Sequence record: PQ438391.1
Source: Escherichia phage vB_Eco_T-01
DNA length: 64,000 nucleotides
Reading direction: 5' to 3' (one strand)
Notes under the pieces: generated by a model
What the model saw: the letters and a program-made list of their open reading frames with translations, nothing else
Told to the model about the DNA's origin: nothing
The model's database searches: none
Made by a program: the position numbers and the translations under genes
Shown here: one piece after another, positions 37,347-39,164 of the stretch
How positions within the stretch are numbered: the first letter of the stretch is position 1
Layout: each line of letters opens with the position of its first letter

Positions 37347-39164
37347 ATGATTAAGAATGAAATTAAAATTCTGAGCGATATTGAACATATCAAAAAGCGT
37401 AGCGGCATGTATATTGGCTCTTCTGCTAATGAAATGCATGAGCGCTTTCTGTTTGGTAAATGGGAAAGTGTTCAGTATGTACCTGGTCTTGTTAAGCTTA
37501 TTGATGAAATTATCGATAACTCAGTAGATGAAGGTATTCGTACTAAGTTTAAATTCGCAAATAAAATTAATGTTACCATTAAAAATAATCAGGTAACAGT
37601 TGAAGATAACGGTCGCGGTATTCCACAAGCGATGGTTAAAACACCTACCGGTGAAGAAATTCCTGGTCCAGTTGCTGCTTGGACTATTCCAAAAGCGGGT
37701 GGTAACTTCGGTGATGATAAAGAACGCGTCACCGGTGGTATGAATGGTGTTGGTTCTAGTTTGACAAACATTTTTTCTGTGATGTTTGTTGGTGAAACTG
37801 GCGATGGTCAAAATAATATTGTAGTTCGTTGTTCAAACGGCATGGAAAATAAATCATGGGAAGATATTCCTGGAAAATGGAAAGGAACTCGTGTTACTTT
37901 CATTCCAGATTTTATGTCATTTGAAACTAATGAGCTGTCCCAAGTTTATCTTGACATTACACTGGATCGTCTCCAGACACTTGCAGTAGTTTATCCTGAT
38001 ATTCAATTTACCTTTAATGGTAAAAAGGTTCAGGGCAATTTTAAGAAATATGCACGACAGTATGATGAACATGCTATTGTTCAAGAACAAGAAAATTGTT
38101 CTATTGCGGTTGGTCGTTCACCGGATGGATTTCGCCAATTAACTTATGTGAATAACATTCACACTAAGAATGGTGGCCATCACATTGACTGTGTTATGGA
38201 TGATATTTGTGAAGACCTTATTCCACAAATCAAACGTAAGTTCAAAATTGATGTAACTAAAGCACGTGTCAAAGAATGTTTGACTATCGTTATGTTTGTC
38301 CGTGATATGAAAAACATGCGATTTGATTCTCAAACTAAAGAGCGTTTGACTTCTCCATTTGGTGAAATCCGTAGTCATATTCAGCTTGACGCTAAAAAGA
38401 TTTCACGCGCTATTCTAAATAATGAAGCAATTCTGATGCCAATTATTGAAGCTGCCTTGGCCCGTAAATTGGCAGCAGAAAAAGCAGCTGAAACTAAAGC
38501 AGCTAAAAAGGCTTCTAAGGCAAAGGTTCATAAACATATCAAAGCGAATCTTTGCGGTAAAGATGCTGACACTACTCTTTTCTTGACTGAGGGTGATTCT
38601 GCAATTGGTTATTTAATTGATGTTCGTGATAAAGAACTTCATGGTGGTTATCCATTGCGTGGTAAAGTTCTCAACAGTTGGGGTATGTCATATGCTGATA
38701 TGCTTAAAAACAAAGAACTATTTGATATTTGCGCAATCACTGGATTAGTTCTTGGTGAAAAAGCTGAAAACTTGAATTATCATAATATTGCTATTATGAC
38801 CGATGCTGACCATGATGGTTTAGGAAGCATTTATCCTTCTCTGCTCGGGTTTTTTAGTAATTGGCCAGAATTGTTTGAGCAAGGACGAATTCGCTTTGTC
38901 AAAACTCCTGTAATCATCGCTCAGGTCGGTAAAAAACAAGAATGGTTTTATACAGTCGCTGAATATGAGAGTGCCAAAGATGCTCTACCTAAACATAGCA
39001 TCCGTTATATTAAGGGACTTGGCTCTTTGGAAAAATCTGAATATCGTGAGATGATTCAAAATCCAGTATATGATGTTGTTAAACTTCCTGAGAACTGGAA
39101 AGAGCTTTTTGAAATGCTCATGGGAGATAATGCTGACCTTCGCAAAGAATGGATGAGCCAGTAG
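37347..39164 (+). CDS. 39: DNA topoisomerase II large subunit gp39 (GyrB-like ATPase), uninterrupted single gene
   Basis: MIKNEIKILSDIEHIKKRSGMYIGSS...; ~605 aa, i.e. the length expected for fused 39+60; ATG at 37347. Confidence 0.9.
   Translation: MIKNEIKILSDIEHIKKRSGMYIGSSANEMHERFLFGKWESVQYVPGLVKLIDEIIDNSVDEGIRTKFKFANKINVTIKNNQVTVEDNGRGIPQAMVKTPTGEEIPGPVAAWTIPKAGGNFGDDKERVTGGMNGVGSSLTNIFSVMFVGETGDGQNNIVVRCSNGMENKSWEDIPGKWKGTRVTFIPDFMSFETNELSQVYLDITLDRLQTLAVVYPDIQFTFNGKKVQGNFKKYARQYDEHAIVQEQENCSIAVGRSPDGFRQLTYVNNIHTKNGGHHIDCVMDDICEDLIPQIKRKFKIDVTKARVKECLTIVMFVRDMKNMRFDSQTKERLTSPFGEIRSHIQLDAKKISRAILNNEAILMPIIEAALARKLAAEKAAETKAAKKASKAKVHKHIKANLCGKDADTTLFLTEGDSAIGYLIDVRDKELHGGYPLRGKVLNSWGMSYADMLKNKELFDICAITGLVLGEKAENLNYHNIAIMTDADHDGLGSIYPSLLGFFSNWPELFEQGRIRFVKTPVIIAQVGKKQEWFYTVAEYESAKDALPKHSIRYIKGLGSLEKSEYREMIQNPVYDVVKLPENWKELFEMLMGDNADLRKEWMSQ

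Follow-up and report, generated by a model that had tools for sequence, protein, structure and literature searches.

A complete, uninterrupted topoisomerase gene 39 without the MobA cassette in a T2/T6-like phage

The large subunit of the T-even type IIA DNA topoisomerase is known in both split and unsplit forms. In phage T4 it is divided between genes 39 and 60, producing a three-subunit topoisomerase, and expression depends on a translational bypass with a GGA/UAG take-off site, a stem-loop and a GGA landing codon. The T6 39-protein corresponds to T4 39 plus 60 (Huang, Wei & Casjens 1985), and T6 gp39 assembles with gp52 into a two-subunit heterotetramer that relaxes DNA in an ATP-dependent manner and for which ATPase, apo, DNA-bound and cleavage-complex structures have been solved by cryo-EM (PMC11461880). 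The T4 and T6 central-domain structures are superimposable, and it is established that the T-even enzyme relaxes but does not supercoil DNA (PMC11461880 and work cited there). The mobile MobA cassette and its transfer to T2 were described by Bonocora et al. (2011), and the unsplit gene was termed the 'parental' allele in a 2022 survey (Manning & Atkins 2022). In that survey the MobA element is 1097-1106 nt long, 55-75 nt of the parental gene are deleted, and the clade 1 element extends 9 nt past the gap. The same survey described an Aeromonas 'hit and run' Topo2L (clade 7), which is also a single full-length ORF without the endonuclease or the bypass gap.

We analyzed a 64,000-nt stretch of phage DNA (the window) that carries this gene. 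Positions 37347-39164 read as a complete 605-aa gene 39 that encodes one polypeptide and represents the unoccupied parental MobA allele without the ~1.1-kb cassette, a reading to which we assign a probability of about 0.96 and which none of the observations contradicted. A 2.5-kb query around the gene matched 533 phage records; most were 95-99% identical and the closest was 98.3% identical, while the best match to a 24-kb query was ~95-96%. The source phage is a T2/T6-like Tequatrovirus, and these identities indicate that it is a new mosaic isolate in a genus that has been sampled very well. The gene and the signals read in the sequence upstream of it are as follows.

37347..39164, + strand: gene 39, uninterrupted, 605-aa large (GyrB/ParE-like) subunit of a phage type IIA DNA topoisomerase, called from the ORF, Pfam and relatives
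37280..37346, + strand: upstream signals, from sequence reading, with 100% identity to T4 and almost complete identity to T2 and T6
37280-37291, + strand: GGCC-TTCG-GGCC hairpin upstream of gene 39
37292-37301, + strand: MotA-box-like TTTAGCTTTA upstream of gene 39
37314-37319, + strand: -10 TATAAT upstream of gene 39
37336-37340, + strand: Shine-Dalgarno GAGGA upstream of gene 39

The sequence-only reading had proposed a single GyrB-like ORF of ~605 aa at 37347-39164, and the ORF listing, the start codon and the Pfam domains all confirmed it. The listing returned one ORF at 37344..39164 (+), which is 606 aa long from an in-frame GTG and 605 aa long from the ATG at 37347. The ATG is indicated as the true start by the GAGGA lying 6 nt upstream, by the 100% identity to T4 over 101 nt around the start and by the MIKNEIK N-termini shared by T4, T2 and T6 gp39. 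Given the base composition of the window, the probability of 605 stop-free codons is ~2.5e-21 and ~3e-16 such ORFs are expected in its six frames, excluding a chance ORF. Judged against curated cut-offs, three Pfam domains were detected above threshold: HATPase_c (E 2e-9, 38.3 bits vs a cut-off of 26.4), DNA_gyraseB (E 1.4e-13, 51.1 bits vs 27) and TOPRIM_C (30.7 bits vs 29). The translation contains the GHKL ATP-binding motifs (N-box, G1 and G2) as DEIIDNSVDE at 53-62, EDNGRGIP at 86-93 and GGMNGVGSS at 130-138, the transducer QTK loop as SQTK at 328-331 within FDSQTK at 326-331, and an uninterrupted TOPRIM metal-binding cluster (E415, D486, D488, D490) that is conserved with T2. These four are the TOPRIM residues named for the T6 enzyme (PMC11461880). 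The domain order of GHKL, transducer and TOPRIM is that of GyrB/ParE and of the N-terminal half of eukaryotic topoisomerase II. Compared with the published MotA-box consensus, the region upstream of the gene appears to be a putative middle-mode promoter. Across the whole 64-kb window, Rfam (gathering thresholds) and tRNA scans gave 0 matches.

The relationship to the split T4 gene was determined using T4 gp39 and spliced gp60 taken from NC_000866; relative to the standard T4 map, the + strand of the window is the minus strand. By BLASTP, window residues 1-473 matched T4 gp39 1-473 at 98.5% identity over 473 aa and residues 472-605 matched T4 gp60 27-160 at 95.5% identity (E 3e-95). At the DNA level, window 37347-38765 (1419 nt) is collinear with T4 5328-3910 and window 38829-39164 (336 nt) with T4 2793-2458, with only 3 mismatches in the 336 nt. 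The break in T4 identity follows codon 473, at 38764/38765 (T4 3911), which places the two DNA junctions at 38765/38766 and 38828/38829, and the orthologous residues 1-473 and 495-605 are encoded at 95-99% DNA identity. T4 and the window phage also share the upstream signals, the gp52 partner and the enzyme itself. The gene can therefore be divided into three segments whose lengths add up to the full gene (1419 + 63 + 336 = 1818 nt).

37347..38765, + strand: codons 1-473, equivalent to T4 gp39 1-473, encoding the GHKL ATPase, the transducer and the first TOPRIM half with E415
38766..38828, + strand: 63-nt segment, codons 474-494, encoding ENLNYHNIAIMTDADHDGLGS with the TOPRIM DxDxD residues D486, D488 and D490
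38829..39164, + strand: codons 495-605 plus stop, equivalent to T4 gene 60 codons 50-160, encoding the second TOPRIM half and the C-terminal tail

At the position of the 63 nt (GAAAAC...GGAAGC), T4 carries the ~1.1-kb MobA cassette (T4 3910..2794). The T4 cassette contains the C-terminal extension of gp39 (CTE), a mobA pseudogene, 60.1, the N-terminal extension of gp60 (NTE), homR, the 50-nt gap and 9 further nt, an anatomy that agrees with the MobA element as described by Manning & Atkins (2022). The 43-aa CTE, the mobA pseudogene, 60.1, the 30-aa NTE, homR and the gap are all specific to T4 in this comparison and none is present in the window. In the BLASTP comparison neither T4 gp39 474-516 nor gp60 1 to ~30 had a counterpart in the window. 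These BLASTP matches and the DNA collinearity bear out the claim that the ORF is the fused equivalent of T4 39 plus 60, and similarity to gp60 was found at the C-terminus. The sequence-only reading had equated the C-terminal ~160 aa with gp60, which was right as to similarity but too long as to extent, as only the last 134 aa correspond and the first 26-30 gp60 residues are encoded by the cassette in T4 and have no equivalent here.

Cassette remnants were sought across the whole 64 kb with the T4 cassette as the query. Using blastn with a word size of 7 and tblastx, no similarity to mobA, the CTE or the NTE was detected. The only match to the T4 cassette was homR, a recoded duplicate of the target that is ~76% identical to the window, aligning with the target itself within 38760-38819 (76% over 38773-38818). 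The claimed absence of the mobile DNA was upheld by this result. The bypass signals were assessed at the same site. Codon 491 (38817-38819), the equivalent of the T4 take-off codon Gly46, is GGT and is followed by TTA GGA AGC, so that codons 490-494 run uninterrupted as GAT GGT TTA GGA AGC without a stop or a 50-nt gap. No in-frame GGA-stop was found anywhere in gene 39 by codon check, and a fuzzy search of the window allowing up to 12 mismatches did not detect a sequence resembling the 50-nt gap. RNA folding of 38796-38850 and 38760-38880 resulted in z scores of -0.14 and -0.41, similar to shuffled controls and with no take-off hairpin, vs a z score of -2.35 for the T4 positive control, in which the same folding recovered the GGAUAGCC-UUCG-GGCUAUCU take-off stem. 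The proposal that the gene lacks a bypass element held, as did those of a fused gene and of missing mobile DNA, and neither the codons nor the RNA folding contained a residual take-off/landing pair or hairpin.

A cryptic recoding signal could in principle persist and still affect translation of the fused gene. The feature that would fit such a signal is a pair of glycine codons separated by 3 nt where the gap used to be, with Gly491 and Gly493 flanking Leu492. However, the two codons (GGT and GGA) are unmatched, neither a stop nor a rare codon follows, the nascent-peptide signal provided by the gp60 NTE is absent, the folding energy is no better than that of shuffled sequences, and the translation is collinear with the T6 protein of solved structure. 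We consider persistent recoding to have a negligible chance of being correct. The sequence indicates that gene 39 is translated conventionally, without recoding, and the consequence for annotation is one CDS with no recoding exception.

The closest relatives of the window gene are the T2/T6-type alleles. The gp39 of phages AR1, EcNP1, KMB40 and Maryam is 100% identical to that of the window, and 449 records carry a gp39 that is at least 99% identical. Compared to T2 the protein is identical at 604/605 positions (the difference is F70L) and compared to T6 at 603/605 (D173T and Q526H). All of these share with the window a 605-aa protein, the gene order 39.1-39-rIIA.1-rIIA and the lack of the MobA cassette, and T2 and T6 differ only by synonymous DNA divergence and one or two residues. 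Gene 39 is 96.0% identical to that of T2 at the DNA level, with 69 synonymous codon differences vs 1 non-synonymous, suggesting strong purifying selection on the gene. The T6 gp39 is represented by PDB entries 8YLU, 8YO1, 8YO5, 8YO7, 8YOD, 8YON and 9IMJ, with 8YLU and related entries matching residues 1-605. The significance of the window gene beyond its correct annotation is small, as databases already contain several deposits of a gene with an identical product, together with a solved structure for a protein that is 99.7% identical.

The GyrA-like partner is also encoded in the window.

45556..46884, + strand: gene 52, 442-aa GyrA-like partner with AASRY at 113-117, including the active-site tyrosine motif R116-Y117

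The gp52 product contains the Pfam domain DNA_topoisoIV (E 9e-77) and is 441/442 identical to T4 gp52. This T-even partner is short at 442 aa and does not have the C-terminal wrapping domain of the GyrA type. Because the window gp39 is nearly identical (99.7%) to the T6 protein, we infer that its enzymology follows the standard type IIA strand-passage cycle. In such a cycle gp39 and gp52 would assemble into a (gp39)2(gp52)2 heterotetramer, and ATP binding would dimerize the GHKL domains and capture the DNA T-segment. The TOPRIM acidic cluster of E415, D486, D488 and D490 would hold Mg2+ while the gp52 tyrosine cleaves the G-segment, and strand passage would then relax supercoils.

An intact reading frame could also be misleading if gene 39 were decaying or non-functional, or if a split gene had been collapsed by an assembly artefact. 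Nothing specific points in this direction, and the argument is limited to the general one that sequence does not prove function. Against these readings stand the excess of synonymous over non-synonymous changes relative to T2, the intact catalytic motifs, the identity to T4 of the putative promoter and Shine-Dalgarno region, the identical protein in four independently deposited phages, the 449 near-identical records and a junction common to ~455 independent records. We regard decay or misassembly as having next to no likelihood, and retain the reading of a complete gene 39 encoding a single polypeptide.

To place this allele among sequenced phages, the two junction types were counted. A 391-nt query centered on the junction, which is too short to bridge a 1.1-kb insert, matched 511 phage records and was contiguous in 455 of them. 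A query with the cassette detected the T4-type element in 43 records, of which many are T4 isolates or are duplicated between GenBank and RefSeq, corresponding to a cassette share of ~8% among sequenced relatives. Match counts with the whole gene were rejected as a census of contiguous alleles; that search merges pieces even when they are separated by as much as half the query length plus 500 nt, and T4-type splits also score as 'one place' (T4 itself is recovered at 100% coverage in 3 pieces). At the protein level the gene was in one piece in 55 of 60 evenly sampled records, reaching down to ~30% identity. The other five were T4, Proteus phiP4-3, Acinetobacter fHyAci03, a partial T4 entry and a Campylobacter phage, and these split-gene clades have already been catalogued (Manning & Atkins 2022). 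Several records annotate the gene as '60plus39'. The unsplit gene 39 is the majority state in T-even phages and is already known, having been described since 1985.

Comparison with more distant enzymes gives the direction of the change. The cellular and eukaryotic type IIA topoisomerases in the PDB all gave one unbroken alignment with the window protein that spans the split point. For human TOP2A/B, yeast Top2 and ParE this alignment covered residues ~5-605 with E values of 1e-47 to 1e-59, although the similarity is only distant. As all of these enzymes align unbroken across the split point, a fused ancestral state is well supported for the family, in line with what the sequence-only reading had proposed. 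This confirms that the split gene and bypass of T4 are a derived, minority condition.

An ancestral state for the family does not by itself describe the history of one allele, and the single ORF could be a secondary restoration, with the MobA cassette present in an ancestor and then cleanly removed when that ancestor recombined homologously with a relative lacking the element. The element is inferred to have been gained and lost repeatedly, most insertions being judged recent (Manning & Atkins 2022), T-even genomes are mosaic, and a tract of low diversity lies 3' of the MobA site, all of which would be compatible with such a loss. However, the window gene has no CTE/NTE scar. The Aeromonas clade 7 ORFs keep CTE/NTE-homologous inserts at the MobA site, in contrast to the window ORF, which has no extra residues and aligns without gaps to T2 and T6. 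The 63-nt segment is also of the parental type, with 61/63 positions identical to T2 compared to ~76% identity to homR, and the diversity trough is not tied to the insertion boundary: its best change-point is ~100 nt further downstream, and comparable troughs are seen at other positions. Restoration is in our estimation quite unlikely, and an allele that has remained parental is the preferred reading. A clean conversion would leave no trace of a past cassette.

The low-diversity tract was evident in several comparisons. Between the window, T2 and T4, divergence falls from ~5% to <1% exactly at the right cassette boundary and remains low for ~700 nt. Across ~500 phages, identity to the window ranges over 97.0-99.7% for the 700 nt on the right, where 134 records reach at least 99%, and over 92.9-98.0% for the 700 nt on the left, where no record does. 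In an alignment of 15 phages, pi was ~1.1% at 38947-39346 vs 4-5% on either side and third-position diversity was halved. The best change-point in this alignment was 38928, ~100 nt past the boundary, and similar troughs were present in the first 200 nt of the gene and inside rIIA. The trough is real and is not specifically tied to the homing site. A homing footprint specific to MobA was ruled unsupported, given the change-point off the boundary and the comparable troughs elsewhere. Diversity drops ~2- to 4-fold over ~500-700 nt that take in rIIA.1 along with the last part of gene 39 and the first part of rIIA. This drop might be a population-wide footprint of repeated MobA co-conversion followed by cassette loss, and if so 'naive' alleles, this one included, would also have been through the homing cycle. 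We consider such a footprint unlikely, and the data favor it no more than an ordinary block of mosaic recombination or constraint acting on the expression signals of rIIA.1/rIIA.

The position of the MobA target can be placed on the window from work on T2, an experimentally shown MobA recipient (Bonocora et al. 2011). The nick that MobA makes in T2 gene 39 falls inside the stretch that homR replaces, ~20 nt upstream of the gap position (Manning & Atkins 2022, citing Bonocora et al. 2011), and carriers of the cassette are protected by the gap and not by the homR polymorphisms (Manning & Atkins 2022). We infer that 38766-38828 is the unoccupied MobA recognition/nick region of the window allele. 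Over these 63 nt the two differences from T2 are both synonymous, ACC vs ACT at codon 485 and TTA vs CTA at codon 492, and the flanking 105-nt stretch has 4 differences from T2 in all, every one of them synonymous. Because T2 has nearly the same target segment, the window allele is predicted to be nicked and converted on co-infection with a phage carrying an intact mobA. One of the two synonymous differences lies close to the inferred nick, so susceptibility to MobA is not certain. As a natural substrate for MobA homing, the window allele would join hundreds of equivalents, including T2, that are already available. The codon 485 and codon 492 variants are both present in other element-free phages.

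Gene content was assessed by comparison to T4. At the position where T4 carries b-gt plus segA, the window encodes a different glucosyltransferase, and a further gene pair lies downstream.

18086-18934, + strand: beta-glucosyl-HMC-alpha-glucosyltransferase, 282 aa (PHROG 842, E 3e-89)
25249-25784 and 26191-26427, + strand: gene 56 (dCTPase) and a soc homologue

The presence of the 282-aa glucosyltransferase in place of b-gt and segA points to predicted DNA glucosylation of the T2/T6 type and not the T4 type. The gene 56 product and the soc homologue were only ~70% and only ~57% identical to their T4 proteins, respectively, and both genes adjoin the site of the absent segF. 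We take this divergence beside the missing segF to agree with the marker-exclusion polymorphism at segF/gene 56 by which T4 differs from T2.

The T4 genes mobB, segA, b-gt, dam and segF had no homologue within the 64-kb window by tblastn (E<=1e-3), and the corresponding T4 positions were also empty of them (window 4884-4907, 18078-19023, 25209-25248 and 25748-26420). Counting mobA, the homing endonuclease pseudogene of the T4 MobA cassette, none of the four T4 homing endonucleases of the region was present in the window. The absence of dam from its T4 locus was notable, for the 64 kb of the genome that the window covers. Two other ORFs were detected.

6278-6901, + strand: homing-endonuclease-like ORF, 207 aa, between a-gt and gene 47
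22821-23447, + strand: ORF at the gene 61.2 position, 208 aa, Pfam AdfA (anti-DarT factor A)

The 207-aa ORF matched PHROG 10820 (E 1e-94) and gave a weak Pfam GIY-YIG match that was below cut-off. T4 has no counterpart of it at this position, where the window is 594 nt longer. The AdfA match covered the full length of the 208-aa ORF (E 1.7e-136).

Two adjoining ORFs lay on the opposite strand.

50576-51367, - strand: gp38 of the T2-type adhesin family, 263 aa (PHROG 2056, E 2e-101)
51398-55336, - strand: ORF of 1312 aa occupying the gene 37 position

With a T2-type gp38 beside this ORF, receptor recognition appears, as judged from gene content, to be T2-like and not T4-like. The gp38/gene 37 block also accounts for the reversal of GC and GC-skew at 50-60 kb.

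Further features were evident in and around gene 39, the unsplit topoisomerase large-subunit ORF.

36634-37277, + strand: 125-aa ORF of PHROG 622 (unknown function) and a downstream 89-aa ORF
39165-39193, + strand: promoter-like site (TTTACT, 17 nt, TG-TATAAT) directly 3' of the gene 39 stop codon

At the upstream locus 372 nt are deleted in T4, which lacks the 125-aa ORF. The 89-aa ORF, which carries a lipoprotein-like signal (…LAVSLVGC), is the full form of T4 gene 39.1, the T4 version being N-terminally truncated. Within gene 39, codons 326-328 (window 38322-38330) lie in the QTK loop, a transducer-domain motif that the window shares, as MRFDSQTK, with T2, T6 and 12 further phages; the T4 reference has MRLIRQTK. 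The T4 DNA differs by a -1 then +1 pair (CGATTGATTCGTCAA vs CGATTTGATTCTCAA; ~4345-4355 of T4 locus L001) within this conserved motif, suggesting either compensating errors in the old T4 reference or a strain-specific change.

A low-diversity tract (window 38829-39528, sharpest at 38947-39346) extended from the end of gene 39 through rIIA.1 into the first ~100 nt of rIIA. Among 15 diverse Tequatroviruses pi was ~1.1% in the tract vs 4-5% in the flanks, and third-position diversity was halved. In three-way comparisons the tract began at the right end of the T4 MobA insertion site (window 38828/38829); in a larger sample the change-point was ~100 nt further 3'. The promoter-like site, which presumably drives rIIA.1/rIIA, may be partly responsible for the local sequence conservation. 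It was unchanged in every one of the 15 aligned phages except GiZh, which has a one-base deletion within the spacer.
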